Shown piece by piece: positions 5,098 to 63,156 of a stretch of 64,000 bases of DNA. Every line of letters starts with the position of its first letter. Position 1 is the first letter of the stretch. The notes beneath the pieces were generated by a model. The model made no database searches, was not told where the DNA came from, and saw only the letters and a program-made list of their open reading frames with translations. The position numbers were made by a program, and so were the translations under genes. The DNA comes from a bacterium (GTDB lineage Bacteria > UBP6 > JAFGXH01), in the NCBI GenBank assembly GCA_027064085.1, contig JAMOQH010000157.1:706-64705 (forward strand). Reading direction: 5' to 3'.

Positions 5098-6084
5098 CTA
5101 TTCTTTTTTAATTTTATTTATTTCTCCTTTTGATAATCCTGTTAATTCCATAATTTTATTAATATCTGTTTTAGTATTTATTAATAATTTCACTAAATTT
5201 ACAATTTGTTTTTTAGCTTTTTCCTCTCTCTCAAGAGCTTTTTCTTTTTCTTTTTGAGCTTTTTCTATCTTTTCTTTAGCTTCTTCAAGACCTTTTTGTA
5301 TCCCTTTGTTTTCAGCTGTGCTTAGTACAGCATACCAATCTCGGTATTCCTTTAAACTTGCTAGATATTTGTTTTGGTCTTTTTTATCCATATTTACAAA
5401 TTCTGCTTTATTAAAAGCATCTTTTATCACTTTATCATCATTAAATATCTTGGGAATTTCATTTAGAGAATCTAAATTATTTAAAAAATAAAACCATTTA
5501 TCCAAATATGTATTTAATTCATTTTCTCTTTTGGTAAATTTAGGCATCTCTACAAATACATAATTTAATTTATCGTAAAATACATCATTATTCTGGTCTT
5601 TTAACTTCACATAATGAAGATAATCTTTATTATTGTTTTCTTTAAACTCAAAATCAAGTATTCCTATACAATAAACAGCACTTAGTTTATAGTCCCAACT
5701 CACCTTTCTTGGACTTCCATCTCTTGTTAATGCAGTTCCATCGTAATATAAGCCTTTTAAACCTTGCTCCTGTATTAAAATACTTGAATAATATACCATT
5801 CTATCTTTAAAATAGGTTTGCTCTGCTCTTTGCAATTCTACAAGTATGTGATTATTGTCTTCGTCAAGGCAGTAAATATCAAAAACGGTATTCCTGTCTC
5901 TTTTGCTTAAACCCAGCTTTTCTAAGTTTTTAAACTCTAAATCAACTATTTTAGCCCTATTTTCAAGCTCCAAAAAAGCATTGATAAAAGATATAAGCTG
6001 TGGTTTACTTCCTTCTTCACCAAATAGTTTTTTAAAACCATAATCTGTGAATGGATTTATATATTTTGATGTTAAACACATCAT
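5098..6084 (-). CDS. Rpn-family recombination-promoting nuclease / PD-(D/E)XK putative transposase
   Basis: The N-terminus 'YINPFTDYGFKKLFGEE' is the hallmark of the Rpn/YhgA-like PD-(D/E)XK 'putative transposase' family. A 'DIYCLDEDNNHILVELQ' nuclease-core-like stretch follows. The tail is a Lys/Glu-rich coiled coil. The gene sits 34 bp upstream of mfd on the same strand. Confidence 0.75.
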   Translation of the reverse strand: MMCLTSKYINPFTDYGFKKLFGEEGSKPQLISFINAFLELENRAKIVDLEFKNLEKLGLSKRDRNTVFDIYCLDEDNNHILVELQRAEQTYFKDRMVYYSSILIQEQGLKGLYYDGTALTRDGSPRKVSWDYKLSAVYCIGILDFEFKENNNKDYLHYVKLKDQNNDVFYDKLNYVFVEMPKFTKRENELNTYLDKWFYFLNNLDSLNEIPKIFNDDKVIKDAFNKAEFVNMDKKDQNKYLASLKEYRDWYAVLSTAENKGIQKGLEEAKEKIEKAQKEKEKALEREEKAKKQIVNLVKLLINTKTDINKIMELTGLSKGEINKIKKE

Positions 6085-24246: not shown

Positions 24247-26550
24247 CTATTTTTCTAGTTTTCTTGCTTTAATTTTAACTGCTCTGTTTGAATCAGTGAA
24301 AATCAAATAGGAGTTACCCTTTTTAATGATTTTCCATATATCTTTGTTTTTTAATTTTCTGTTTTTAAATACTTTTAAAGTATTAGCATTTTTATCAAAA
24401 ATAATTAATCCATCATTTTGAGTACCAAGAAATATTTTATTATTTGAATAATTTAATGCTGTTACAAAATTTCTTTTAATTTTAGAAACATAAAGAATAT
24501 AGGATTTATTTGTATTTCTATCGTATGCCGTTACAATACCTTTATAATGAGCTCTATAAACAACATTATTGGCAGTAATTGTTGCAATTATAGGATGAAT
24601 ACCTTTTGCAACAAATTTACTATCTTGGTCACCATTATACATTCTGAGTCTTAATTGTAATTCTCTGTTTTTATTTAAAAAACCATTATCTCTAACCCAT
24701 AATTGAACAGCATCCTTAGGATCATTCTGAGAAATTTCTCTTGGCTTTTTAACAAATCCAAATTTAAAAATCATTCTTTTAAACCATGGCTTTAAATTGT
24801 TAGGTGTATTTTTTGTAAATTTAAATTCAACTTCAGGATCAAAATCACCAATTGCTTCACCCATTCTAGCATAAGCTGTATAAGTCTTTTTGTTCCCTAC
24901 TGAATATAAATTTAAAAGATTATAAGCTTTTCTTTTATCAACAGTAGTATAATAAATATCCTTTAAATTATCTTTCTGAACATCTTCCATACCATTAAAA
25001 TTCATAGCCATTTTTACTCTTTTAAGCTTTATATTGCTCTTTAAATTAACTCTCCATGAATAATTTTGGTTTACTAAAATATATAATTTTCTTGTTGTAA
25101 TTACAGCAATTTTTATTTGATTATTTTCTTTGTAAACAAAAACATTTACTATAGTTTCATTTCTTCTTAATCTTACATTATTATTAAAAATATTTCTAGC
25201 TTCCTGATTATTTGGCATTTTCACAATAATAGCTTTTTTATAAACTCTTACTTTTGTAACAGAGCTATCATATCTTTCATGTGCACCATTTACAGAAAAG
25301 TTTATATGTGTTGATTTATTGGTTTTTCTTACATCAGATAATCTTAAAGTTTTCATAGCACCTTTATAAGTTAATTTCCAAGTGCCATTTCTGTATCTTT
25401 CATGAGCTGCAATATAATTTACAGGACCATATACTTGTTGAAATATAATTTCGTATCCCTTAAAGTCATTTATGGAAATACCACAGTAGTTTCCACCAGT
25501 TCGGTATCCACCTTTTCCATTTGTAGTGATATCACACAAATAAATGTAGCTTCCACCAAGCATTGGCTTATCTTCTTTTGGTGCTTGAACAATGACAGTA
25601 TCATTAATTCCTAGTTTTTTTTTCATCCATTTATGAAATTTACCATTAATTTTTAAATTTCCTGATTTTGTTAAGCTACCATTAGTTTTTTTCATTAATA
25701 AATAGAAACTATATTTTCCTTGCTTAGGTTTTGTATTTACAACAGATAAAACTTTATTGCCTGCATTATTTTTTACCATATAGTAAAAATCACCAAATCC
25801 ATTTCCTTTAACATCATACATACCTACACTATTTAAAATAAGTTGATATCTATTTTTTAATTTTTTATTAAAAAACTTTTTGTATGAGTTACCATTATTT
25901 AAAAATAAATATGCTTTTGAAGATGTTAATGCAAATAAGAATTTACTTCCATTTTGATTTGTATAAAAACCTGCTCTTAATACTTTTCCATCAACTAATC
26001 CTTCAGCTATTTTAACTGCATTTGGTTTAACTAATTGTAAAGGAGGTCTTTTAGATGTTTTATTTACAACATTAACATTTTGATTTAAATGTTTAACTTT
26101 ATTTGTCATCCATTTATGAAATTTTCCATTGACTTGTAAGTTTCCAGATTTAACAACAGAGCCATTATTTCTTAAGGCCACTATATAAAAACTATATTTT
26201 CCTTTTTTGGGTCTTGTATTAACAACATATAGTGTTTTTTTATTATTAGATTTTGTTGCATACCATAAATCTAAAGAACCATTTTTATCTATATCGGTAA
26301 GGCCTGCAGATCTAAACAATGGTGTTTCAGTATTTTTAAAAGTTTTTGCAAAAAACTTATTAAAATTAGAACCGTGTTTAATGAATAAGTAGGCTCCACT
26401 AGAAGTAATTGCAAATAGCTTTTGACTTCCATCACTTGCATAAGAAGCAGCTAGAACTTTACCATTTGTTAAGTTTTTAGCTTGATTCATAGCATTATTA
26501 CCAAGAATTGTTAAGCTAAACATCAACATAAACAACAATAATTTACTCAT
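24247..26550 (-). CDS. large secreted protein with internal tandem duplication, hypothetical
   Basis: 767 aa with a signal peptide. Two ~145-aa direct repeats, e.g. '...LYVVNTRPKKGKYSFYIVALRNNGSVVKSGNLQVNGKFHKWMTNK' versus '...LSVVNTKPKQGKYSFYLLMKKTNGSLTKSGNLKINGKFHKWMKKK'. The C-terminal half carries beta-propeller-like repeats. Confidence 0.5.
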   Translation of the reverse strand: MSKLLLFMLMFSLTILGNNAMNQAKNLTNGKVLAASYASDGSQKLFAITSSGAYLFIKHGSNFNKFFAKTFKNTETPLFRSAGLTDIDKNGSLDLWYATKSNNKKTLYVVNTRPKKGKYSFYIVALRNNGSVVKSGNLQVNGKFHKWMTNKVKHLNQNVNVVNKTSKRPPLQLVKPNAVKIAEGLVDGKVLRAGFYTNQNGSKFLFALTSSKAYLFLNNGNSYKKFFNKKLKNRYQLILNSVGMYDVKGNGFGDFYYMVKNNAGNKVLSVVNTKPKQGKYSFYLLMKKTNGSLTKSGNLKINGKFHKWMKKKLGINDTVIVQAPKEDKPMLGGSYIYLCDITTNGKGGYRTGGNYCGISINDFKGYEIIFQQVYGPVNYIAAHERYRNGTWKLTYKGAMKTLRLSDVRKTNKSTHINFSVNGAHERYDSSVTKVRVYKKAIIVKMPNNQEARNIFNNNVRLRRNETIVNVFVYKENNQIKIAVITTRKLYILVNQNYSWRVNLKSNIKLKRVKMAMNFNGMEDVQKDNLKDIYYTTVDKRKAYNLLNLYSVGNKKTYTAYARMGEAIGDFDPEVEFKFTKNTPNNLKPWFKRMIFKFGFVKKPREISQNDPKDAVQLWVRDNGFLNKNRELQLRLRMYNGDQDSKFVAKGIHPIIATITANNVVYRAHYKGIVTAYDRNTNKSYILYVSKIKRNFVTALNYSNNKIFLGTQNDGLIIFDKNANTLKVFKNRKLKNKDIWKIIKKGNSYLIFTDSNRAVKIKARKLEK

Positions 26551-31691: not shown

Positions 31692-33329
31692 TTAAGGGCG
31701 AGGTCTGCAATATTTACTAGGATATGGATAAGAAGTATTTTCATAACAATAAAAATTACTACTATAGCAATCACTATCCGTTTCGCAAGTATCCATCCAA
31801 TACATCATCCAAGAATCATTTACATTCATACCTACACACATAACTTCATTAGGATAAGTTGTATTATCAAGAGCTCCTTGCTGAGGACAATCACTTGCCA
31901 CACATATATTGTAATGTTCAAAAGCCATACATGTTCCATTTTGATAATCACAATCAAAATCTGAATTACACTCTATACCAACTGGTTTCAATGAGCTATC
32001 ATATTTACAGTAACCTAAATCATCCCAGTTATTAACAGAAATACACCTGTTGTATTCCTCACATTTAGAATTATTAATATTACCTTCACTTGGCTTGCAA
32101 GCAGGCTCACACCTTTTGGTCGTTTCTGAATTATTATCGTGATCAACACAAATACTACCTTGTAAACAAAGATTATTTTTATTACACAATCTTCCATTTT
32201 CTAAAGTACCTGTTACAGCACAAGCATTATAACTAATTTCATCAAAAGGATAACATGATTTTCCCACTTCTGAACAAGAATTATCAGAGAACATATCACA
32301 GTTTATGTCTTGAGTAACACATAAACCACTATTATTGTCACAAATTTGATAATCTTTACACTCACTATCACTTAAACATTTAGGCCTACATAATTTATCA
32401 TTATTACAAGTAAAATCACTTCTGCAATCTAAAATATTATTACAAGCTTGTAAACAGTATTTACCACTTAAATAATCACCACATTTATAATCATTACAAA
32501 CACTATCATCTGTACATCTTTTAGTACAATAACCATTTTCTATACCGTTTAAAAGACAAATCATATCACTAGGACACTGACTTTGTGTATTACACATAGA
32601 CCCCATAGTAGGAGGCGGTGTACATGCTCCATCTATACACAGATAACCATCTATATCACATATACCAGTAGGATGCTCTGCACTGCATTTGTCAAGTTCA
32701 ACAATACATAATTCACCGGTTTCATCTTTTTTAAATCCTTGTTTACAATCCCATTCACATTTTGTTGTTTCTTCCCAGGCATCATTTACCCAGTTAATTT
32801 CAAACTGGGTAACAATGATTTCTCCATTTTCAGGAATAGTTATATGCCTATCACATTGAACAAGTTTTGTATTTTCCTTACAATTATCATTTTCACAATG
32901 TTGTGTATCTGTGCATTCTATATTACCACATAACTCAAGGCCATCTTTAACACAATTTAAACCAACAGGATGATAGCCACTTGTACAAATACAAATAGCT
33001 TTATCAAAATCATTTAAATCACATGTTCCATTACCACTACAATCAACAGAATTACATTTAGCTTCCTTTAGAGTTTTACAAACTCCATCATAGCATTCCT
33101 TATCTTTTTCTCTGCAATAGCCAAATTTATTTGTTTCAGAACATTCCAAATCGACTTTTTCACATTTATTTTTAACACATTCATACCCTTCAAGACACTT
33201 AACAGAGTCATCACAATAAGCCTTACTTGCTGTTGAAGCAGCACATGATGATAATAATAAAAAGATAAATATTATTATATAGTGGAAATTATTCCTGATT
33301 ATATTACCTAAATTCATAAAAATACCCAA
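31692..33329 (-). CDS. secreted cysteine-rich repeat protein (EGF-like / myxobacterial-type Cys-rich repeats)
   Basis: 545 aa with a signal peptide. Many Cys residues (on the order of 70 by eye) fall in recurring C-x-C-x(n)-C-x-G-x-C units, e.g. 'CEKVDLECSETNKFGYCREKDKECYDGVCK', 'CNSVDCSGNGTCDLNDFDKAICICTSGYHPVGLNC'. Confidence 0.6.
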   Translation of the reverse strand: MGIFMNLGNIIRNNFHYIIIFIFLLLSSCAASTASKAYCDDSVKCLEGYECVKNKCEKVDLECSETNKFGYCREKDKECYDGVCKTLKEAKCNSVDCSGNGTCDLNDFDKAICICTSGYHPVGLNCVKDGLELCGNIECTDTQHCENDNCKENTKLVQCDRHITIPENGEIIVTQFEINWVNDAWEETTKCEWDCKQGFKKDETGELCIVELDKCSAEHPTGICDIDGYLCIDGACTPPPTMGSMCNTQSQCPSDMICLLNGIENGYCTKRCTDDSVCNDYKCGDYLSGKYCLQACNNILDCRSDFTCNNDKLCRPKCLSDSECKDYQICDNNSGLCVTQDINCDMFSDNSCSEVGKSCYPFDEISYNACAVTGTLENGRLCNKNNLCLQGSICVDHDNNSETTKRCEPACKPSEGNINNSKCEEYNRCISVNNWDDLGYCKYDSSLKPVGIECNSDFDCDYQNGTCMAFEHYNICVASDCPQQGALDNTTYPNEVMCVGMNVNDSWMMYWMDTCETDSDCYSSNFYCYENTSYPYPSKYCRPRP

Positions 33330-34603: not shown

Positions 34604-35896
34604 TTAAAACATATACTTTAATTCAAAAAAGAATCTACTAAATTCTTCAAGCCGCCCAAATCTTGTACCACTAGCTCCTCTAAAATTTATTACACCTATG
34701 TAAGATTTTAATTGGCTTGATATATTCCAAGAAGCAAACAATAAATTCATCATATTTAAATCTAATAAATCAGCAGAACCTAAAAATTGAAAACTTAACA
34801 TTGGAGTAAATGAATATCTTATTCTGTAAATAGTGCTATATGTATTTATTCTTGATACAAAAATATCATCTCCAAGCATAGGACTCAAACTATCATACTC
34901 TAACTGCCTGTTGTAATTTAATAATCTTGTGTAAGATATTTGTAAAGAAATAGATAAACCATTAGAAAATTCTTTTTCAAAGCCAAATGCTGTTTTTATA
35001 TTTCTATTTTTAATACTAACATCTTTACCAATTTCATCTTCTGTATGATGATATGCTAATTCAAAAAGCCAAACTGTATCAAATAATATTGTTTCAAAAT
35101 CTAAACCCATTACTTGTAGCTTTTTGTATTCTGGAGTAAATGTTGCCACATTCATATCAACAACAACAGAAAAATTTCTATCATATCCTTTAAAATAATT
35201 TAATGAAAAATCAGTATCTTCTCCTACCTCAAATGTAATTTTAGCACCAATTTCAGTATTGGTAATATTTCTTGATGAATGTTTTGCTATTGTTTTAGTT
35301 AGTGGCCCCATTTGATTTGGTAATTCCATTTTATTTATAGGAGCAATTGGAAGAAATACTGTTTCTAATGTTGCAATATCAAAAAGATTAAAATCTAATT
35401 TTAAGGCATCAACAGCAACTCTATAGTTCTCTTTTTCTGCACTCATAGTCATAAAATTCCATGGAGAAATAACATCAAGTGCCCCACCCCATTCAAATTT
35501 TCCCCAAAAAATATACTGACGCCCTAATTTTAAATCAAGGAACCCTCCTATATCTCTAATCCCTATATAACCTTCTTTAAAATAAGTTGTCATGCCATCT
35601 GAATTCAAAGAAGTTGGTTCTTGTTCTAAAATTTTAAAATCATAATCAAATTCTAATATTGTATTAAAATAAATATCTTTAGTTACATCGTTATTAAACC
35701 TTAATTGTAAAGTTAAACCACCTCTATCATATATAAATTTATCTTTTTTTAATTTTTGATTACTCCAATTTATGTCAGACATAGCTCCACTAATATCAGT
35801 ATAATTGTAGTCCTTGATATAACCTGATATTAAATTATTTTCTGCAAATAAATTAACAGTAAATATAAAAAATGCCAAAATAGGTATTATTCTCAT
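34604..35896 (-). CDS. putative outer-membrane beta-barrel protein, hypothetical
   Basis: Signal peptide 'ILAFFIFTVNLFA'. Alternating hydrophobic strands. C-terminal aromatic residue ('...ELKYMF'). 1-bp gap to the flavoprotein gene. Confidence 0.35.
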   Translation of the reverse strand: MRIIPILAFFIFTVNLFAENNLISGYIKDYNYTDISGAMSDINWSNQKLKKDKFIYDRGGLTLQLRFNNDVTKDIYFNTILEFDYDFKILEQEPTSLNSDGMTTYFKEGYIGIRDIGGFLDLKLGRQYIFWGKFEWGGALDVISPWNFMTMSAEKENYRVAVDALKLDFNLFDIATLETVFLPIAPINKMELPNQMGPLTKTIAKHSSRNITNTEIGAKITFEVGEDTDFSLNYFKGYDRNFSVVVDMNVATFTPEYKKLQVMGLDFETILFDTVWLFELAYHHTEDEIGKDVSIKNRNIKTAFGFEKEFSNGLSISLQISYTRLLNYNRQLEYDSLSPMLGDDIFVSRINTYSTIYRIRYSFTPMLSFQFLGSADLLDLNMMNLLFASWNISSQLKSYIGVINFRGASGTRFGRLEEFSRFFFELKYMF

Positions 35897-52834: not shown

Positions 52835-53245
52835 TTACGAAACAAACCATTTGTCAATAATGTTTTTTTCAGCATACTTTGTTAGTTCATTTTTAGATTT
52901 TTCTGTTCCTGCAATAAATTTAATCCCTAATTTAAGAGATTTACCATCATCAGAAAGGGTTGTGTTTGTTACTTGTCCTGCAACTGTAATAATTCCAGCA
53001 TTACTTTCAGGTACAGAAAAAGACATTAAAAGTTCTGTTCCTACATCATAAGGGACTCTGCTTTCTAAAGAAATACCATTGTCACTAACATCATTTGCTT
53101 TTAATATTGTCATTGAGGTTTCTGTTTCTGCTTCAACAACAGCATTAATAGGTACTCTGTCTGATTTTCTTCTTGAAACTCTTTTTACTACCTTAATTTT
53201 GTTATTAACTTCAATTAAGTCTATGATATTCTTCCTTCTTTCCAT
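52835..53245 (-). CDS. PilZ-domain c-di-GMP-binding protein
   Basis: 'RRKSDRVPI' (RxxxR) and 'DVSDNGISL' (D/NxSxxG) PilZ motifs. 136 aa. Divergent from the MCP gene. Confidence 0.7.
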   Translation of the reverse strand: MERRKNIIDLIEVNNKIKVVKRVSRRKSDRVPINAVVEAETETSMTILKANDVSDNGISLESRVPYDVGTELLMSFSVPESNAGIITVAGQVTNTTLSDDGKSLKLGIKFIAGTEKSKNELTKYAEKNIIDKWFVS

Positions 53246-55595: not shown

Positions 55596-55811
55596 TTATT
55601 TTTTAATAACTTTAACTTTAACCTTTTTTTTAGTTTTGGTTTTAACTTTAACGCCTTTGTCATCTTTTTTAATTGTTGTTTTTTTAGTTTTAACTTTAAC
55701 ATTATCATTATCTGTTTTTACAACAACTTTTTTAGTTTTAACAACAGTTTTACCTGCATAAATTGTAGATACTGCAAATAATGCTACTAATCCAATCATA
55801 ATTGCTTTCAT
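55596..55811 (-). CDS. small secreted Lys/Val-rich repeat protein, hypothetical
   Basis: Signal peptide 'MKAIMIGLVALFAVSTIYAG', then 'KTVVKTKKVVVKTDNDNVKVKTKKTTIKKDDKGVKVKTKTKKKVKVKVIKK'. A GGAGG RBS lies 5 nt upstream of this ATG (the track ORF starts 12 nt further upstream at 55823). Confidence 0.4.
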   Translation of the reverse strand: MKAIMIGLVALFAVSTIYAGKTVVKTKKVVVKTDNDNVKVKTKKTTIKKDDKGVKVKTKTKKKVKVKVIKK

Positions 55812-55909
55812 ACTTTCCTCCAAAAAATAAATATGAGATAATATCTATACATAAAATTGCTATAAAATCAAATAATTATGAGTTTTTAGAGTAAAAATGA
55901 ATAAAATTA

Positions 55910-58270
55910 TTAAAACCAGTTGTTATATATCATGTTTATCCCAAAAAATAGATTATATGAATAAGACCAATTTTTTTCTTTTTCTTTATAAGCATAAGAA
56001 TCTATTTTTGTAGAAAAATGAAAAAATCCTAATATTGGAATATTTATATTAAATAAAAAATTTGCTATATTTGTTTGATTAAATCCAAGGAAATAATCAA
56101 GTTTAGATGTTATTTTAATTGGAATATCTAAACTTTTAATTTCATAGTTGTTTAAGTTATATCCAATAATTGAACCTAATAAAATATCATCATCTTTTCT
56201 GAAATCTTTAGAACCTTGTAAGCCTAGTTTAAATTCAAATTTATTATCAGAAGAAAGAAATGATATTCCACTTGAGAAAAATAATTCAAAATAGTGTTTT
56301 TCTTCTATTTTGGGTTTTGTCAATTCACTGTTAAGTTTACTTTCTAAAAATGGAAGTGGGATTAATATGTTATTCTGATTATTTATTTTAAAGTAATTAC
56401 TTTTGTAATTAAAAGCATAACTTATTGTGTCATTACTTTCCATAAATTCAGTATTATTTTCATTAGATTGATAGTAATGTAATTCAAATCTATTTTCAAT
56501 TATATGATATTTAGAACTTCCAATAAGATTAATATTTGAATCTAGTTTTAATAATTCTGTTGGAGTTGTATCAAATCTAGGCTTACTATATACGGAGTCA
56601 TTGGATACATCATTTTTTATATAGTAGATTCCTAAATTACTATAAAATTCCCATAAAAACCTTTTAGATAAGTCTTCAAATTCAATACTAGGATTAAAAA
56701 AAGAGTTTTTCTTTTTAAATTTTTCTTTTTTTAAATAATTTTTAAATATGTTTTTTATTCTACCATAATACTTCTTCTTTTTAATAAAAAATTCATCTTT
56801 AAAAAATCCATCACCACCATTTACAATAAATTCAGTTGTTACTACTTTGTATTTTTTTTTATCAATAATATTACGGCCATTAATTTTAATATTTTTGCCA
56901 AAATTTATATTTGTAAAAAGGAGTTTATTTTTATTTTTTTTTAAGAATTTTTTTAGTAATTTTCCTTTTATTCTGAAACTTGCGATTTTATTGTTATAAG
57001 TGATCGATTTTTCTATAGTATCGTATGTGAGTTTATTTATAGGGAAAGGTTTATTATTGAAATTACCTTCATTAATCATAGCTATTTCACTGTTTGTTTT
57101 CATAATCATTAATTTTAAAATAAAACTATAAAATGTTTTAAAAGAAAGAGATTTTATCTTCATATTATTTATAGGTAAATCATATTTTTTAAAATACTGT
57201 TTTCTATAGTTTTCTAAGATTTTTTTAAAAATAATGGAAACTTTTGATTTGTATTTAAATTTCTTGTTTAAATTTTCAATATTTTTTATTTGAAATTTAT
57301 TATTTATCTTTTTGATTTTTAATAGTAATAAATTAGGGGTATATCTATCAGGATTTGCTCCTATTATATAGATGTCATTATTATATCTTCTTATTAACCT
57401 TGTGTTTTCAGCATTACTAATTATTAAATCTATATTTTTTAATTTTTCAGATAAATTCATTGTTTTTTTAGGAGAAGTCTCCTTGTCTTCTACCTGAGCT
57501 AAAAGAATAATTACATCAACGCCCTTTTTTTCTTTTAAATATTTTGCTAGTTTATTAGTTTGCTTTATTTCTGGTAAAATATTCATATTTTTAATAGATT
57601 TATAAAATGCTTTTTTCATAATAGTATGTGAAACGACTGAAATTATTCCAATTTTTACATTATTTATTTTAAGAATTCTGTATTTTCTGTTTTTAGTTAA
57701 TTTACAAAGTGGTAAATTTTGAGAATTAGTGCAATTCATATTTGATGATAAAAACGGAAGGCTCATAATTTTTTTATTTTGAGATAGTTTTTTCATTATA
57801 TTATAGGGAGTATAAAAATCCTTTTTTCCTATATTTATTATGTCAAAATTATTTTCTTTAAGTAATGAATATACAAAATCTATGCCTTTAGGTTGTTGTA
57901 ATAAAAACTTAATTGAAATACTTGGCCAAAAACTTGCTCCGTTATTTAGAGTAATAGGTTTTTCCCAGTTATTAATTAGAGGTAATATATTTTGGTAATA
58001 TTTTATTTTTCCGAGTAGGTTATAGTAGCTATTTTTTTGAGTTTTATCTATGTTTATAAAACGGCCTTCAAAATCGGATATATATATAATGGGTATATTT
58101 ATTATTTTTTCTTTTTCTCCCCTAGCTTGAGTTGTTATTCCCGTAGAATAAGGTATCGCCTTATCCATACTATGATCAGGAGATTTAGAAATTTGATGTG
58201 TTACATCACTATTGGGTAAAGCCCAAACTATAATATTTAATAAAAACAAACTGATTACTAGTTTTATCAT
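55910..58270 (-). CDS. 5'-nucleotidase/UshA-fold family protein with degenerate metal-binding motifs and a C-terminal beta-barrel-like extension
   Basis: Signal peptide 'MIKLVISLFLLNIIVWALP'. Start placed at this Met (the track ORF starts 42 nt upstream at 58312 and would overlap the next gene). UshA-like blocks 'IIYISDFEG' (cf. TNDHHG), 'FDIINIGKKDF' (cf. AIGNHEFD), 'LPFLSSNM' (cf. PLLSANI), 'VVTTEFIVNGGDGF'. The last ~270 aa show alternating beta-strand character and end in '...NNWF'. Confidence 0.45.
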   Translation of the reverse strand: MIKLVISLFLLNIIVWALPNSDVTHQISKSPDHSMDKAIPYSTGITTQARGEKEKIINIPIIYISDFEGRFINIDKTQKNSYYNLLGKIKYYQNILPLINNWEKPITLNNGASFWPSISIKFLLQQPKGIDFVYSLLKENNFDIINIGKKDFYTPYNIMKKLSQNKKIMSLPFLSSNMNCTNSQNLPLCKLTKNRKYRILKINNVKIGIISVVSHTIMKKAFYKSIKNMNILPEIKQTNKLAKYLKEKKGVDVIILLAQVEDKETSPKKTMNLSEKLKNIDLIISNAENTRLIRRYNNDIYIIGANPDRYTPNLLLLKIKKINNKFQIKNIENLNKKFKYKSKVSIIFKKILENYRKQYFKKYDLPINNMKIKSLSFKTFYSFILKLMIMKTNSEIAMINEGNFNNKPFPINKLTYDTIEKSITYNNKIASFRIKGKLLKKFLKKNKNKLLFTNINFGKNIKINGRNIIDKKKYKVVTTEFIVNGGDGFFKDEFFIKKKKYYGRIKNIFKNYLKKEKFKKKNSFFNPSIEFEDLSKRFLWEFYSNLGIYYIKNDVSNDSVYSKPRFDTTPTELLKLDSNINLIGSSKYHIIENRFELHYYQSNENNTEFMESNDTISYAFNYKSNYFKINNQNNILIPLPFLESKLNSELTKPKIEEKHYFELFFSSGISFLSSDNKFEFKLGLQGSKDFRKDDDILLGSIIGYNLNNYEIKSLDIPIKITSKLDYFLGFNQTNIANFLFNINIPILGFFHFSTKIDSYAYKEKEKNWSYSYNLFFGINMIYNNWF

Positions 58271-58280
58271 AAAAACCTCT

Positions 58281-60542
58281 TTAAATTTTATATCTTTTAA
58301 TGTATATTTCAAGTAAAAATAATAGTATTAATAACAATAACATATAAACATTATCCCAAATAGGAACATATTTTTTTTCTGTAATTTCTGAGATTAATTT
58401 TTTAATTTTAATTTTACTTGCACTTTCATCATAACTTAGTATTTTAATATTCTGATATTTTGATATTTCTGATAAAAACTTTTTATTAATTTGTGGATTG
58501 TCAAATTCTTTGGATTTATCTTTAACAATAAACATACTGTAACTATTTTCTAACAACTTGCCTTTTAGATAAGTTTTAAATTCTATTTTATATCTTCCAT
58601 TTTTCTTAATTTTTTCTAATATTTGGGCTGTTCCAGAATTGTCTAGTTTTACTTCTTTTTTTATTAAAAACTTGTCATTGTCAATATTTGTTATTTGATA
58701 ATATAGTTTATTATTTTTTAATGGATTATAGTGGTAGTCATATGCTTTAATTAAAATGGATAAAGTTTCCTTTTTAGAAATGATGTTAGCATCAAATGAC
58801 ACTTTGATTAATTTCATATCAGGGTCTTTAATTAACCATTTTATTGCTTTATCCCAAAAATAACTATATATTTGCTTATGGGTAATATCTATTAATTTAT
58901 GAAAATTCCAAGTCCATTGGCTATCTGTTGTAATTGCCATTGTTCTTCCGTTTCCTGATTGTATAGTTGCTATTAAGGGATAAGTTTTATTGTTACATAC
59001 TTTATCTGTTTTAGCAATTAAAGTTGCTGTTGGTTTTAATGTCGTTTTATTGAAACCCTCTGATAATGGTAAGCCTGCTAAAGCAGATTTTTGTTTTTTA
59101 TAGTTGTTTGCAAACTTAAAGAATGGAGAGTCTAAACCATTTTTAGTTATTTTATAATGTGTATTTTTATAACAAATACTATCTTTTGCTGATTTTGAGC
59201 TTAAATTAACGGGTAAAATATCTTCTATTGGAGTGCCTTTATAGCCTCCTGCAGTAAAGGAATTTAGGCCTCCTATCATAACAAGTCCACCACCTCTTTT
59301 AGTAACAAAATCTTTAATATTTTGTAGATATGGTGATATTCCATAGGGAGCGTAATTAAAATTTTGTAAAATAATTAAATCAAAACTATTTAATCTATCA
59401 TAAAATAATTCGTGTGCAGGAAAGGGTATAAGAGATAGTTCTCTTTCAGGTACTAAATATACATCATTAGTTGTTCTTAAAATAAAAAATGATACCAAAT
59501 CAACATCTGGATGATTTTTTAATAATTGCCTCATAAATCTAACATCCCAACTAGGTTTTCCAACAACTTGTACAACTCTTATTTTATCTCTTATTACATT
59601 AATTATAAAATCTTTTTTATTATTAATTAGTAACTCTTCATTCTTTTCAGGTGGAATAATTACCGTGTATATGTATGTTCCCACATTTTTAGGTTTAAAT
59701 TTAAATGAAATTTTAATGTTTTTATTATCACTTAAAGAAACAGTTTTTCTATCAATAATTTCTTTATTTCTATACAGAAATACTTTTTTATTTATATTTT
59801 TATATCCAATAGATGATATTTCTAAGTCTATTGAAGTTGTATTTTGTACAAAAGCATAGCTATCATATTGTATTTTTTTAATGAAGATATCTTTTGTAGT
59901 CTTAATTTGTGGTAATATTAAGTTTAAGGGAATTTTATTTTTTATTAATTTTCTTATTATACCCGTTGAGCTTGTTAATTTTTCATCTGTATCAATAAAA
60001 TCAGATGCTATTATTATTGAGGATATTTCATTTATTGTATGATTTTGTAAAAATTTATTTAATGAATATCTTATTCTTGTTTCATCATCTATTGGAGTAA
60101 TCTTATGTTTATTATCAATTGCTTTAAGAGTTGTTCCAATACTATAAAAGATTGTATTGTATTCTTTTCTTAATTTATCAATTATAATTTTATTATTTTT
60201 AAAAAAATAATTTAAATTTTGAAACCTATTATTTTCTGTATTTTTCAGAGGGAGGGTTAATGATTTAGAGGTATCTTTAAAGAAAAATATTGATTTTTTA
60301 CCTTTATTAAATTTAACATACTCTAAAGATGGTTCTAAAAAAATAAAAAGCATTAATAGTAACAGTAGTGATCTAATGGACAATAATAAAATTCTTTTTT
60401 TAGGTAGTTTTAGATAACTATATATACTAAAAATAATAATACCCAAAAATCCAATATATATAAAAATATTTATTGGAGATAAATTTAAATTTAAAAATGT
60501 AAATTTATTATATGCAAATTCACTTAATATTTTACTATTCAT
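58281..60542 (-). CDS. membrane protein with N-terminal double-TM segment and class-I glutamine-amidotransferase-like (GATase1-like) domain
   Basis: Two TM helices flanking 'KLPKKR' (BatA-type N-terminal double-TM pattern). 'RGGGLVMIGGLNSFTAGGY' is GATase1-like. 753 aa. Confidence 0.4.
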   Translation of the reverse strand: MNSKILSEFAYNKFTFLNLNLSPINIFIYIGFLGIIIFSIYSYLKLPKKRILLLSIRSLLLLLMLFIFLEPSLEYVKFNKGKKSIFFFKDTSKSLTLPLKNTENNRFQNLNYFFKNNKIIIDKLRKEYNTIFYSIGTTLKAIDNKHKITPIDDETRIRYSLNKFLQNHTINEISSIIIASDFIDTDEKLTSSTGIIRKLIKNKIPLNLILPQIKTTKDIFIKKIQYDSYAFVQNTTSIDLEISSIGYKNINKKVFLYRNKEIIDRKTVSLSDNKNIKISFKFKPKNVGTYIYTVIIPPEKNEELLINNKKDFIINVIRDKIRVVQVVGKPSWDVRFMRQLLKNHPDVDLVSFFILRTTNDVYLVPERELSLIPFPAHELFYDRLNSFDLIILQNFNYAPYGISPYLQNIKDFVTKRGGGLVMIGGLNSFTAGGYKGTPIEDILPVNLSSKSAKDSICYKNTHYKITKNGLDSPFFKFANNYKKQKSALAGLPLSEGFNKTTLKPTATLIAKTDKVCNNKTYPLIATIQSGNGRTMAITTDSQWTWNFHKLIDITHKQIYSYFWDKAIKWLIKDPDMKLIKVSFDANIISKKETLSILIKAYDYHYNPLKNNKLYYQITNIDNDKFLIKKEVKLDNSGTAQILEKIKKNGRYKIEFKTYLKGKLLENSYSMFIVKDKSKEFDNPQINKKFLSEISKYQNIKILSYDESASKIKIKKLISEITEKKYVPIWDNVYMLLLLILLFLLEIYIKRYKI

Positions 60543-61276
60543 CGTCTATTCTTCAATAAATAATCTACATGAACTTGGTCTGCCTTGTAAGCTAAACAAG
60601 TTGCATACATAATTATATTAACCCCTGTTCTGTAGGCCATTTCCCTTGTTTTATTTCCTTCAGGAACCGAGTATTTCCAGTTACTAAAATCATCTACTGT
60701 GAGTGCTCCTATTATATCATTCTTGGAATATAATATTTCTATTCTGTTGTCTTCTTCTATTATATAAAAATTTGAGCTTATATTTAATCTTCCATATGGT
60801 TTATCAAGCAAGTTAAATGTTCTGTAAATAACATGATCTTTAGGAGCTATTTTTAATTTCTTTTTAGGATATAAGCTCTCAATTAAATTTTCTATAGATT
60901 TATTAAATGTTCCACTTGCTTCATCACTTGCAGAGTCAATAAAGAGCAAACCCCCAAAAGTTAAATAATTTTTTAAATTTTTAATTTCTGTTTTTGATAG
61001 TGAAAATTTTTTATCACCTGTTAAAAATAAAAGAGGATGTTTAAACAGTTTCTTTTTATTTTTTAAATCTATATCAATAATATCAAAAGAAACTTCAATA
61101 CTTGTTCTTTTAGAAACTTCCCAAAGCATTTTTTTTAAACCACTGTTTCTAAAGTTGTAATTTCCAGAATATTTTAAAATCCCAATTTCTAGAAATGATG
61201 ATTTTCCTATTGCTTTTAGTGATTGTGAAAAAAATGGAATTGATAAAATAGATAAAATAAATTGTTTTCTATTCAC
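60539..61276 (-). CDS. DUF4159-like secreted protein
   Basis: Signal peptide present. 'HPLLFLTGDKKFSLSKTEIKNLKNYLTFGGLLFIDSASDE' resembles the DUF4159 core. 4-nt overlap with the downstream gene. Confidence 0.4.
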   Translation of the reverse strand: MNRKQFILSILSIPFFSQSLKAIGKSSFLEIGILKYSGNYNFRNSGLKKMLWEVSKRTSIEVSFDIIDIDLKNKKKLFKHPLLFLTGDKKFSLSKTEIKNLKNYLTFGGLLFIDSASDEASGTFNKSIENLIESLYPKKKLKIAPKDHVIYRTFNLLDKPYGRLNISSNFYIIEEDNRIEILYSKNDIIGALTVDDFSNWKYSVPEGNKTREMAYRTGVNIIMYATCLAYKADQVHVDYLLKNRR

Positions 61277-61278
61277 TT

Positions 61279-61518
61279 TTATGATTCACTGTTTTCATTT
61301 AATTGTTTGTTTGATTCAGAGGTTGCCAATACTTTTTTTTCTTCACTTTCTTCTTTTTTATCATCATCGGTAACACCTTTTTTAAATTCTTTTATACCTT
61401 TACCAAAACCACCCATTAATTTAGGGATTTTACTTCCTCCAAAAATAACTAAAACGATAAATAGAACTATTAGTAATTCTGGTGTTGAGGGCATTGCAAG
61501 TAATATATTTTGATTCAT
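61279..61518 (-). CDS. tatA: twin-arginine translocase subunit TatA/E
   Basis: '[36 protein letters not shown]' is the TatA TM-hinge-amphipathic-helix signature. 79 aa with an acidic tail. Confidence 0.8.
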
Positions 61519-61581: not shown

Positions 61582-63156
61582 CTACTGTTCAATATAATCT
61601 TCTTCTACTAGTTTGTCTAAAATAGCATAGGTTTCTTCTTCTGATAGTTCTGTATTTTCTATAATTTCAGATATAGAACTGAAGTTATGAACAAGTTGTA
61701 AAACTTTGAGTTCATTTTTATTTAGCTCATCAAGAGGACTAAAAAGTGGCAACGGAAGAATATATTCATCATCCAAAGGAAATTTTTCTTTTAACTCGTC
61801 TATATTTATTTCTGTTTTATTTTCTTCTTCAACTAAGTCACTACTTACTGCATTTGAATTTTCTTCACTAAGTTTATTAGGTAAACTATCATGTTCTGAA
61901 ATAATTTCCTTAGGCACATCATCTAAATCATCAAGAGCAAAATCATTATCGTCATCGTCTAAATCATCAAGGTTGAAGTCATCATTTTTAGGCTTTGCTG
62001 TTTTTTGAGCATCGTCATCTAAATCATCAAGAGCAAAATCATTATCGTCATCGTCTAAATCATCAAGGTTGAAGTCATCATTTTTAGGCTTTGCTGTTTT
62101 TTGAGCATCGTCATCTAAATCATCAAGAGCAAAATCATCATCGTCATCTTCTAAATCATCAAGGTTGAAGTCATCATTTTTAGGCTTTGCTGTTTCTTGA
62201 GCATCGTCATCTAAATCATCAAGAGCAAAATCATCATCGTCATCTTCTAAATCATCAAGGTTGAAGTCATCATTTTTAGGCTTTGCTGTTTCTTGAGCAT
62301 CGTCATCTAAGTCATCAAGAGCAAAATCATCATCTTCTAAATCATCAAGAGCGAAGATATCATCTTCAGCATCTATGTTTTCATCGTTAAAGTCGTCTAA
62401 GCTAAGAATGTCCTCCGAATCGTCAACATTAACACTTATTTCATCAAAACTATCTAGCATTAAATCATCGTCATCTTCTTCTAATTCAAAGTCTAGGTCA
62501 TCTAAACCAACTTCATCTTCGTACTTTGCAGCTTCAAGGAGGAATGCATCTAAACTAATATTTAATCTATTTCCAAAATCACTAGGATCTTTTTGTTCAA
62601 ATTCAAAAAAACCAGAATCAAGCTTTATGAGCTTGATAAGTATTTTCTTAGGTTCTGCATTACTACTAGTCATAATAATATCTTTAAAGATTCCTTGAAC
62701 TAATTGTATTTCAGCAGAAATAGAACCTGAAGTTATTCTTAAAACTCCTGTTTTTTTACTAGTTGCAAGTAATTGTAATACTTCTGGAATTGGAATATCC
62801 TCAATTGAGCCTGATACTGCATTTGTTCCAATTTTAGCCGCATCTTCCATATTTTGTCCAGTGTCATCACTATCTATAAACTTGGCAATAGATGTTCCAA
62901 TTAATATTCTATCATTAAGCTTAAGCTTAATTTTTTTTATTCTATTACCGTTTACAAAGGTTCCATTGGTAGAGCCCATGTCTTCAAGTATTATATCACT
63001 TCCTGATATACTTATTTTTGCATGTTTTCTTGATACCATATCTTCAGAGAGAACCATTTCTAAATCACTGTGACGCCCAATAACAATTACATTTTTGTCT
63101 AATGGAAATTCACCACCTTTATATTTACCCGAAATAAACTTAAACATTAAAGCCAT
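61582..63156 (-). CDS. FHA-domain + DUF4388-domain protein with long acidic tandem-repeat tail
   Basis: N-terminal FHA 'VIGRHSDLEMVLSEDMVSRKHAKISISGSDIILEDMGSTNGTFVNGNRI'. DUF4388-like 'IPIPEVLQLLATSKKTGVLRITSGSISAEIQLVQG'. About 230 aa of D/E-rich sequence follow, built from a repeated 32-aa unit 'FALDDLDDDAQETAKPKNDDFNLDDLEDDDDD'. Confidence 0.75.
   Translation of the reverse strand: MALMFKFISGKYKGGEFPLDKNVIVIGRHSDLEMVLSEDMVSRKHAKISISGSDIILEDMGSTNGTFVNGNRIKKIKLKLNDRILIGTSIAKFIDSDDTGQNMEDAAKIGTNAVSGSIEDIPIPEVLQLLATSKKTGVLRITSGSISAEIQLVQGIFKDIIMTSSNAEPKKILIKLIKLDSGFFEFEQKDPSDFGNRLNISLDAFLLEAAKYEDEVGLDDLDFELEEDDDDLMLDSFDEISVNVDDSEDILSLDDFNDENIDAEDDIFALDDLEDDDFALDDLDDDAQETAKPKNDDFNLDDLEDDDDDFALDDLDDDAQETAKPKNDDFNLDDLEDDDDDFALDDLDDDAQKTAKPKNDDFNLDDLDDDDNDFALDDLDDDAQKTAKPKNDDFNLDDLDDDDNDFALDDLDDVPKEIISEHDSLPNKLSEENSNAVSSDLVEEENKTEINIDELKEKFPLDDEYILPLPLFSPLDELNKNELKVLQLVHNFSSISEIIENTELSEEETYAILDKLVEEDYIEQ
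61921..62340. repeat. 96-bp direct tandem repeat array (about 4.4 copies) inside the FHA protein gene
   Basis: Unit 'atctaaatcatcaagagcaaaatcattatcgtcatcgtctaaatcatcaaggttgaagtcatcatttttaggctttgctgttttttgagcatcgtc' at 61921-62016. An identical copy at 62017-62112. Copies at 62113-62208 and 62209-62304 are identical to each other and differ from the first pair at 3 positions. A diverged partial copy follows. The repeat is in frame (32 codons). Confidence 0.9.

Follow-up and report, generated by a model that had tools for sequence, protein, structure and literature searches.

A degenerate UshA-like module joined to a predicted outer-membrane beta-barrel in a bacterium of the UBP6 lineage

Why would a bacterium keep the fold of a 5'-nucleotidase when the catalytic residues have been replaced, and why would that fold be joined to what appears to be an outer-membrane barrel? 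This question is raised by a gene on the minus strand of a 64,000-nucleotide stretch of DNA, hereafter the window (assembly GCA_027064085.1, contig JAMOQH010000157.1, positions 706 to 64,705 of the forward strand; GTDB lineage Bacteria; UBP6; JAFGXH01); all coordinates are those of the window. The explanation that we favor, with moderate confidence, is that the gene encodes an outer-membrane protein with a dead UshA-like module at the periplasmic face of a small barrel, and that this module has a non-catalytic binding role. There is good support for the fold assignments, for catalytic-residue loss in the protein and in its family, for the predicted barrel, and for conservation of the architecture. 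The novelty lies in the domain architecture, both folds being already known.

The open reading frame (ORF) described in an earlier note, which was made from the sequence alone, spans 800 codons on the minus strand (55910..58312) of an AT-rich window (about 21-33% GC). The frame itself stood, but its start did not: the start codon is probably the ATG at 58270 rather than the TTG at 58312, because the TTG falls within the upstream gene (stop at 58281-58283), while an AGAGG stands 5 nt before the ATG. The same ATG is used by database gene calls and by all 8 close homologs, and public assemblies contain a gene call with an identical product of 786 amino acids (aa). The signal peptide, assigned by reading the sequence and not by a dedicated predictor, appears typical and has no lipobox Cys, and a hydrophobic N-terminus is common to all homologs. 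A promoter and terminator scan in this AT-rich DNA gave 62 promoter-like sites against 63 expected. The features of the gene are as follows.

55910..58270, minus strand: whole gene of the secreted three-module protein, 786 aa, with its stop codon at 55910-55912 (ORF, ATG with ribosome-binding site, identical public gene call)
58276..58280, minus strand: AGAGG resembling a Shine-Dalgarno sequence, separated from the ATG by 5 nt; it immediately follows the TAA of the upstream gene (58281-58283)
58208..58270, minus strand: putative signal peptide, MIKLVISLFLLNIIVWA, followed by LP (read from the sequence)
57266..58105, minus strand: metallophosphatase-like N-domain with the UshA fold and a degenerate active site, about residues 56-335 (AF2 predicted local distance difference test, pLDDT, 70-90; Foldseek; hhalign; PF00149 absent)
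58064..58078, minus strand: motif I remnant SDFEG (NDHHG in UshA), residues 65-69 (hhalign and family alignment columns)
57812..57829, minus strand: motif III remnant GKKDFY (GNHEFD in UshA), residues 148-153 (HMMER against PDB, hhalign)
56696..57265, minus strand: linker helix and 5'-nucleotidase C-terminal (substrate-binding) domain, about residues 336-525 (PF02872, UshA alignment, family column counts)
55913..56695, minus strand: predicted C-terminal 12-stranded outer-membrane beta-barrel ending in NNWF, about residues 526-786

The order and spacing of UshA/5'-nucleotidase blocks, recognized by eye in the earlier note, were confirmed, although only one of the two Pfam models relevant to this fold was found. 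PF02872 was detected in the target protein with 47.9 bits against a cut-off of 23.6 (E 2.1e-12), and in 10 of 10 diverse relatives, seven of them above the cut-off; PF00149 (calcineurin-like metallophosphatase) was not detected in the target, even at E <= 1. The NCBIfam UshA equivalog NF007109 reached 37.7 bits, far below its cut-off of 600. In HMMER searches, PDB entry 3ivd was matched by the single target sequence (E 3e-4), and an 8-sequence family profile matched 3ivd (E 6e-11) and UshA (about 6e-7 to 9e-7); 3ivd and 3ive are the Escherichia coli putative 5'-nucleotidase c4898. At 95% probability and E 3.8e-8, hhalign aligned 413 columns of the 8-sequence profile with E. coli UshA (query 52-491, UshA 27-508). 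The UshA sequence used there agrees with the stretches displayed in the PDB alignment, except for an engineered Leu-to-Cys change in the PDB chain. A full-length AlphaFold model built from the 8-sequence alignment had a mean pLDDT of 62 (70-90 in the N-domain), and Foldseek matched it over about 500 columns to 3ive (E 8e-16) and UshA (about 1e-14 to 1e-13), and also to SoxB, YfkN, and CpdB (each about 1e-10). Because the profile, hhalign, and Foldseek matches concur, the UshA/5'-nucleotidase fold predicted for the N-terminal half is secure, despite the absence of PF00149.

In the active site of UshA, the dinuclear metal ligands are Asp41, His43, Asp84, Asn116, His217, and His252, and the catalytic dyad is His117-Asp120. 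The hhalign alignment paired IPIIYISDFEGRF with ITVLHTNDHHGHF of UshA, so that Asp41 corresponds to Asp66 (kept) and His43 to Glu68, and paired IINIGKKDFYTPY with AMAIGNHEFDNPL, so that Asn116, His117, and Asp120 correspond to Lys149, Lys150, and Tyr153; the register of the second motif was confirmed by HMMER alignments to PDB 3ivd and UshA. The segment LLAQV aligned with AATHM of UshA in both HMMER and hhalign, placing Gln259 at His217. Two weaker assignments, which draw on the family alignment and on where strands are predicted, turn GGD of motif II into NGA and GGH of motif V into SNA. In total, the target keeps one of the eight canonical residues, reading D-E-A-K-K-Y-Q-A at D41, H43, D84, N116, H117, D120, H217, and H252. 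The earlier note had reported the replacement of NDHHG by SDFEG and of GNHEFD by GKKDFY with the reservation that its manual alignment might be off register; the profile alignment gave the same register, and the metal ligands are indeed replaced. Because the dinuclear metal center and the catalytic Asp-His dyad are gone, canonical phosphoesterase activity is predicted to be impossible for this protein.

In the substrate-binding pocket of UshA, the nucleoside is clamped by Phe429 and Phe498, with ribose and base contacts from Asn431 and Asp504 (GGD motif) and with Arg410 (GGIR motif) binding the phosphate. In the UshA alignments, the base-stacking pair is kept in the target, as Tyr425 for Phe429 and Phe481 for Phe498, and Asn427 and Asp487 match Asn431 and Asp504 of the GGD motif. 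Thus, in the earlier suggestion of a pseudo-enzyme retained for binding, the dead site stands, and the retention of the module for binding appears plausible because the nucleoside-stacking aromatics are conserved.

The C-terminal part had been described as about 270 barrel-like residues with a Trp-Phe end, and the structure predictions agreed. The last ~260 residues contain 12 long predicted strands with alternating hydrophobic and polar faces, the hydrophobic face being clear on most of them (e.g., LLSILG, FLFSIFS, and NAFFIII), and the chain ends in ...IYNNWF; the last residue is Phe, Tyr, or Trp in 51 of the 66 full-length members whose alignment provided all family column counts. An AlphaFold model of residues 515-786, built with a 45-sequence alignment, showed twelve long strands (pLDDT 89.9, predicted template modeling score 0.85) in a closed antiparallel barrel with an even strand count. 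Foldseek returned 74 matches to this model at E <= 1e-3, and the best 50 were all outer-membrane barrels, led by NalP, Pla, and EstA. Structure prediction therefore bore out both halves of the protein, matching the N-domain to the UshA fold and modeling the C-terminal domain as a 12-stranded barrel, the structural neighbors of which are nearly all barrels of the outer membrane. No Pfam family, DUF3078 (PF11276) included, was matched by the target's own barrel at E <= 0.1; among the C-terminal domains of 45 relatives, 15 weakly matched DUF3078 (best E 6e-7), and OMP_b-brl, DUF481, and Porin_4 had single matches each. A 12-stranded outer-membrane barrel is confidently modeled at the C-terminus, and on this modeling the protein would insert into the outer membrane. 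The host is probably diderm, because a LolA_like gene is present in the window. In the family alignment, the distance from the GGD motif to a conserved F-P-D-L motif before strand 1 is 34-55 residues (median 48), and the UshA chain ends 46 residues past the same GGD Asp. Because the spacing from GGD to the barrel equals the natural UshA tail, the barrel would start where the UshA fold ends, with roughly 6-24 residues between them in the target.

This architecture is not confined to the window. When 1.84 billion cluster representatives were searched exhaustively by HMMER, the last 267 residues matched 79 proteins at E <= 1e-3 (38 at E <= 1e-10), nearly all of them 750-900 aa long and matched in their C-terminal part; a protein search with the 45-sequence barrel alignment returned one protein only. 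The earlier note had expected a nucleotidase-barrel fusion to be unusual, and no description of one turned up in full-text literature searches, nor does any Pfam or NCBIfam model span the whole architecture; it is not a one-off, however, being shared by about 79 clusters at 50% identity. Judged from the aligned members, the fusion defines a family with an apparently degenerate active site throughout. Equivalents of His43 and His252 occur in none of the 66 members, and even the best-preserved members keep five of the eight canonical residues. The motif GNH[E/D] is kept in few (e.g., P0017, P0019, P0023, P0049, and P0068), the Asp of motif II (GD) is kept in 28 of 66, and the window clade has the most degenerate active site in the family. 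Conservation is concentrated in the barrel (Tyr561, Tyr599, Glu611, Asp614, Pro638, Pro640, Glu649, and Gly668) and the substrate-binding domain (Gly436, Asn464, Arg466, Tyr474, and GG485-486); in the N-domain, strong conservation is seen at Gly69, Gly111, Gly148, Asn177, Asp281, and the Cys180-Cys189 pair. In a scan of species-representative genomes, the high-GC subgroup proved to be Bradymonadales, comprising Persicimonas, Lujinxingia vulgaris, and several 'Bradymonadales'/'Myxococcales' metagenome-assembled genomes; a scan of these genomes with the close-homolog alignment found no relative of the low-GC window clade.

The cysteines show a pattern of their own. The Cys180-Cys189 pair (window about 57704-57733) is family-wide and is kept in the window clade. 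At two further columns, one after motif I and the other at the start of the inter-domain helix, Cys is present in about 87-90% of members, and the window clade has lost both (Lys76 and Phe360 in P0001). These two Cys could form an inter-domain disulfide that locks the UshA-type hinge.

In the mechanism that we propose, a Sec signal peptide would direct export of the three-part protein, the two-domain UshA/5'-nucleotidase-like module, lacking metal center and dyad, would be non-catalytic, and the UshA fold would run directly into the fused 12-stranded outer-membrane barrel. Given that the barrel takes over where the UshA fold stops, the dead-enzyme module would most likely lie at the periplasmic mouth of that barrel. 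There, at a small outer-membrane channel or anchor, it would bind a nucleoside-like ligand, or a partner filling that cleft; binding of this kind would be most likely, because the aromatic clamp and the ribose-binding Asp are kept and the metal ligands and the Arg are gone. We infer the insertion into the outer membrane, the periplasmic orientation, the ligand binding, and any role in transport. Several points weigh against this explanation. The equivalent of the phosphate-binding Arg410 is lost (Asn405 here, and Arg in only 22 of 66 family members) and the Phe429-equivalent column is non-aromatic in 20 of 66, and nucleoside binding by the pocket is therefore not guaranteed. In addition, hhalign is out of register at motifs II and V, whose D84 and H252 columns were taken from the family alignment; Asp66, Glu68, and Asp151 might in principle suffice to bind a metal ion; and the middle domain is poorly modeled in the full-length AlphaFold prediction (pLDDT about 40). 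The module is placed relative to the barrel by linker length alone, and a short extended linker crossing the pore is possible. Finally, the neighborhoods vary among family members, with no family-wide partner and no consistent functional clue from context.

We ranked the rival explanations as envelope assembly, autotransporter-like export, a non-canonical enzyme, and gene decay, in this order. The first is raised by the genes next to the target.

58281..60542, minus strand: GATase1_like membrane protein, 753 aa, upstream in the same operon with a 10-nt gap to the target (PF07090, E 1.9e-11)
60539..61276, minus strand: DUF4159 protein whose N-terminus resembles a signal peptide; its gene overlaps the start of GATase1_like (PF13709, E 4e-37)
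61279..61518, minus strand: TatA-family gene, heading the DUF4159/GATase1_like/target string (ORF; PF02416 on the identical gene in locus L001)
55596..55823, minus strand: small Lys/Val-rich protein, signal-peptide-like at its N-terminus, encoded directly downstream of the target (ORF; gene calls in L001 and L004)

Under this rival, which we consider unlikely, the protein would, in this clade, mainly serve to anchor in the outer membrane an envelope-spanning assembly that includes the co-transcribed DUF4159 and GATase1_like proteins (Bat/aerotolerance-type), and the dead module would be a protein-protein scaffold and not a binder of small molecules. Besides the close packing of the target, GATase1_like, and DUF4159 genes, the order FHA/PatA_N, TatA, DUF4159, GATase1_like, target, and small Lys-rich secreted protein is shared by the window and a relative with 67% identity, the gaps in the string being <=10 nt or overlaps, and the GATase1_like-target order is also found in L001, L002, L004, and L005. 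The 47%-identity homolog P0008 adjoins DUF58 and BatA/VWA genes, and there are thus hints of a link to Bat-type envelope systems. However, the P0008 neighbors are convergent and not co-transcribed, and tblastn found neither DUF4159 nor GATase1_like in the fetched loci outside the window clade, which include 15 Bradymonadales loci. The neighbors of other members are unrelated, such as glycosidase and peptidase genes (P0017), NAD-salvage genes and a GGDEF gene (P0011), or radical-SAM genes (P0012); the association is clade-specific, whereas the architecture and the pocket residues are family-wide.

Further observations concern these neighborhoods. P0008, the most distant of the close homologs (GCA_054034575.1; L003 9475-12756), has a convergent flank of DUF58, unknown, BatA/VWA, and DUF6115 genes, and its flanks and those of the target represent distinct portions of Bat/aerotolerance-type envelope gene sets. 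The small Lys/Val-rich protein, with 44% identity (tblastn) to its counterparts at the same position in L004/L005, the locus of the 67%-identity relative, is about 71-75 aa long and has a repetitive body with VKTKK-like units and no family match on record. The FHA/PatA_N (DUF4388) gene (61582-63156, minus strand) contains a 96-nt tandem repeat at 61919-62334 (4.3 copies, 98% identical) that encodes acidic DDFxLDDL...AKPKN units; the product of this gene is 524 aa long in the window, 428 aa long in L001, 569 aa in L004, and 383 aa in L005, on otherwise near-identical contigs, which suggests copy-number variation or assembly collapse. Elsewhere in the window, a PD-(D/E)XK nuclease-family transposase gene (5098-6084, minus strand; PF12784, E 3e-60) adjoins the mfd (TRCF) gene, and three ORFs of 767, 545, and 430 aa (24247-26550, 31692-33329, and 34604-35896, all minus strand) without a Pfam match at E <= 1e-5 are located in a long minus-strand gene run with FecR and LolA_like genes.

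Somewhat less probable again is an autotransporter-like (type V) protein, in which the barrel would export the UshA-like module as a passenger to the surface, where it would bind extracellular nucleotides or surface molecules of prey or host. The type Va autotransporters EstA, AaaA, and NalP show the same order of signal peptide, enzyme-fold module, and C-terminal 12-stranded barrel, and type Va barrels rank among the best Foldseek matches of the target barrel. Classical autotransporters, however, require a pore-spanning helix just before strand 1, and the target differs from them in having almost no linker there. The AlphaFold model predicted no long helix before strand 1, with only helical turns of 3-4 residues in the preceding 24 residues, and PF03797 (autotransporter beta-domain) was absent from the target at E <= 1 and from the 45 C-terminal domains at E <= 0.1. 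By an established rule, outer-membrane barrels with an even number of strands have both termini in the periplasm. Because of the missing helix, the missing PF03797 match, and this rule, the UshA-like module most likely faces the periplasm.

It is improbable that the protein is still an enzyme, with a non-canonical phosphoesterase or hydrolase site formed, for example, by Asp66/Glu68/Asp151 with one metal, or by Lys149/Lys150. Asp66 is kept, the acidic Glu68 and Asp151 stand in for His43 and Glu118, and SoxB represents the same fold re-purposed; but the replacements at the former ligand positions vary across the family (D, E, K, N, A, Y, and Q in the former His43 column, with the Asn116 and His117 columns likewise mixed), which argues for an active site that was relaxed rather than rebuilt, and strong conservation in the N-domain is limited to the few Gly, Asn, Asp, and Cys positions listed above. 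We give hardly any credence to a decaying pseudogene or a mis-called ORF without function: the loss of catalytic residues resembles gene decay, but the 786-codon frame is intact, seven homologs with 47-87% identity share invariant residues in all three modules, the architecture recurs in divergent clusters, and the barrel and N-domain model confidently.

A bolder proposal, which we regard as doubtful, is that these proteins are an unrecognized outer-membrane class, with the dead UshA module acting as a receptor in the periplasm or on the surface, where it would capture nucleosides or nucleotides, or gating a Tsx-like 12-stranded channel. Predatory Bradymonadales and related bacteria of low GC content might use it as a nucleoside-scavenging or signaling device. 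Such a device might be linked to cyclic di-GMP (c-di-GMP) circuitry, given the PilZ or GGDEF genes next to several members; the association of the family with c-di-GMP genes is a lead only. One PilZ gene directly adjoins the start of P0041 (L029 6342-7001), another is located just downstream of P0044 (L030 4855-5181), and a divergent GGDEF gene stands upstream of P0011 (L008 7133-7864). The PilZ gene of the window (52835-53245, minus strand) is 2.6 kb downstream of the target, past an MCP gene. A crude PilZ regular expression run over all loci found convincing neighbors only in L029, L030, and the window clade, and none beside the 15 Bradymonadales loci.

If the explanation that we favor is true, the family would provide a clear family-wide bacterial pseudoenzyme, in which the UshA fold is kept for a purpose other than hydrolysis, and its architecture, an enzyme-fold module in linkerless fusion with a small barrel, would fall outside the described classes of autotransporters, Omp85-type, and OmpA-like proteins. 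Current annotation would probably call such genes 5'-nucleotidases, a label that is unlikely to be correct because the catalytic residues are lost. The family is present in the cultured predators Lujinxingia and Persicimonas, and roles in nucleoside capture, envelope organization, and predation are therefore genetically testable.

Among known systems, DUF3078 comprises uncharacterized proteins of Bacteroidota outer-membrane-vesicle proteomes, and one is listed in the outer-membrane-vesicle protein table of P. gingivalis (PMC12937337). Its likeness to the family consists of the weak C-terminal matches in 15 of 45 members, and in P0015, the only member for which coordinates were displayed, the match spans about 60 residues of the barrel. 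The small 12-stranded barrels Tsx, PcoB, OMPLA, and NanC/KdgM have only 5-10% sequence identity to the target barrel, which matches none of their families in Pfam, and, unlike the target, they do not carry an enzyme-like N-terminal module of ~500 residues. The top match to Tsx, a nucleoside channel, is suggestive yet generic to the fold, and the target could not be assigned to Tsx, membership of which takes both the sequence family and a nucleoside-specific pore. In the UshA family (E. coli UshA, c4898, and CD73), no characterized member carries, to our knowledge, an appended outer-membrane barrel of 260 residues, and the target differs in the replacement of seven of the eight canonical metal and catalytic residues, the loss of the phosphate-binding Arg410, and the undetected PF00149. 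The two-domain fold is nevertheless the same, with a metallophosphatase-like N-domain, a linker helix, and a PF02872 domain; the order and spacing of the motifs are alike, and the signal peptide and the GGD motif are kept.

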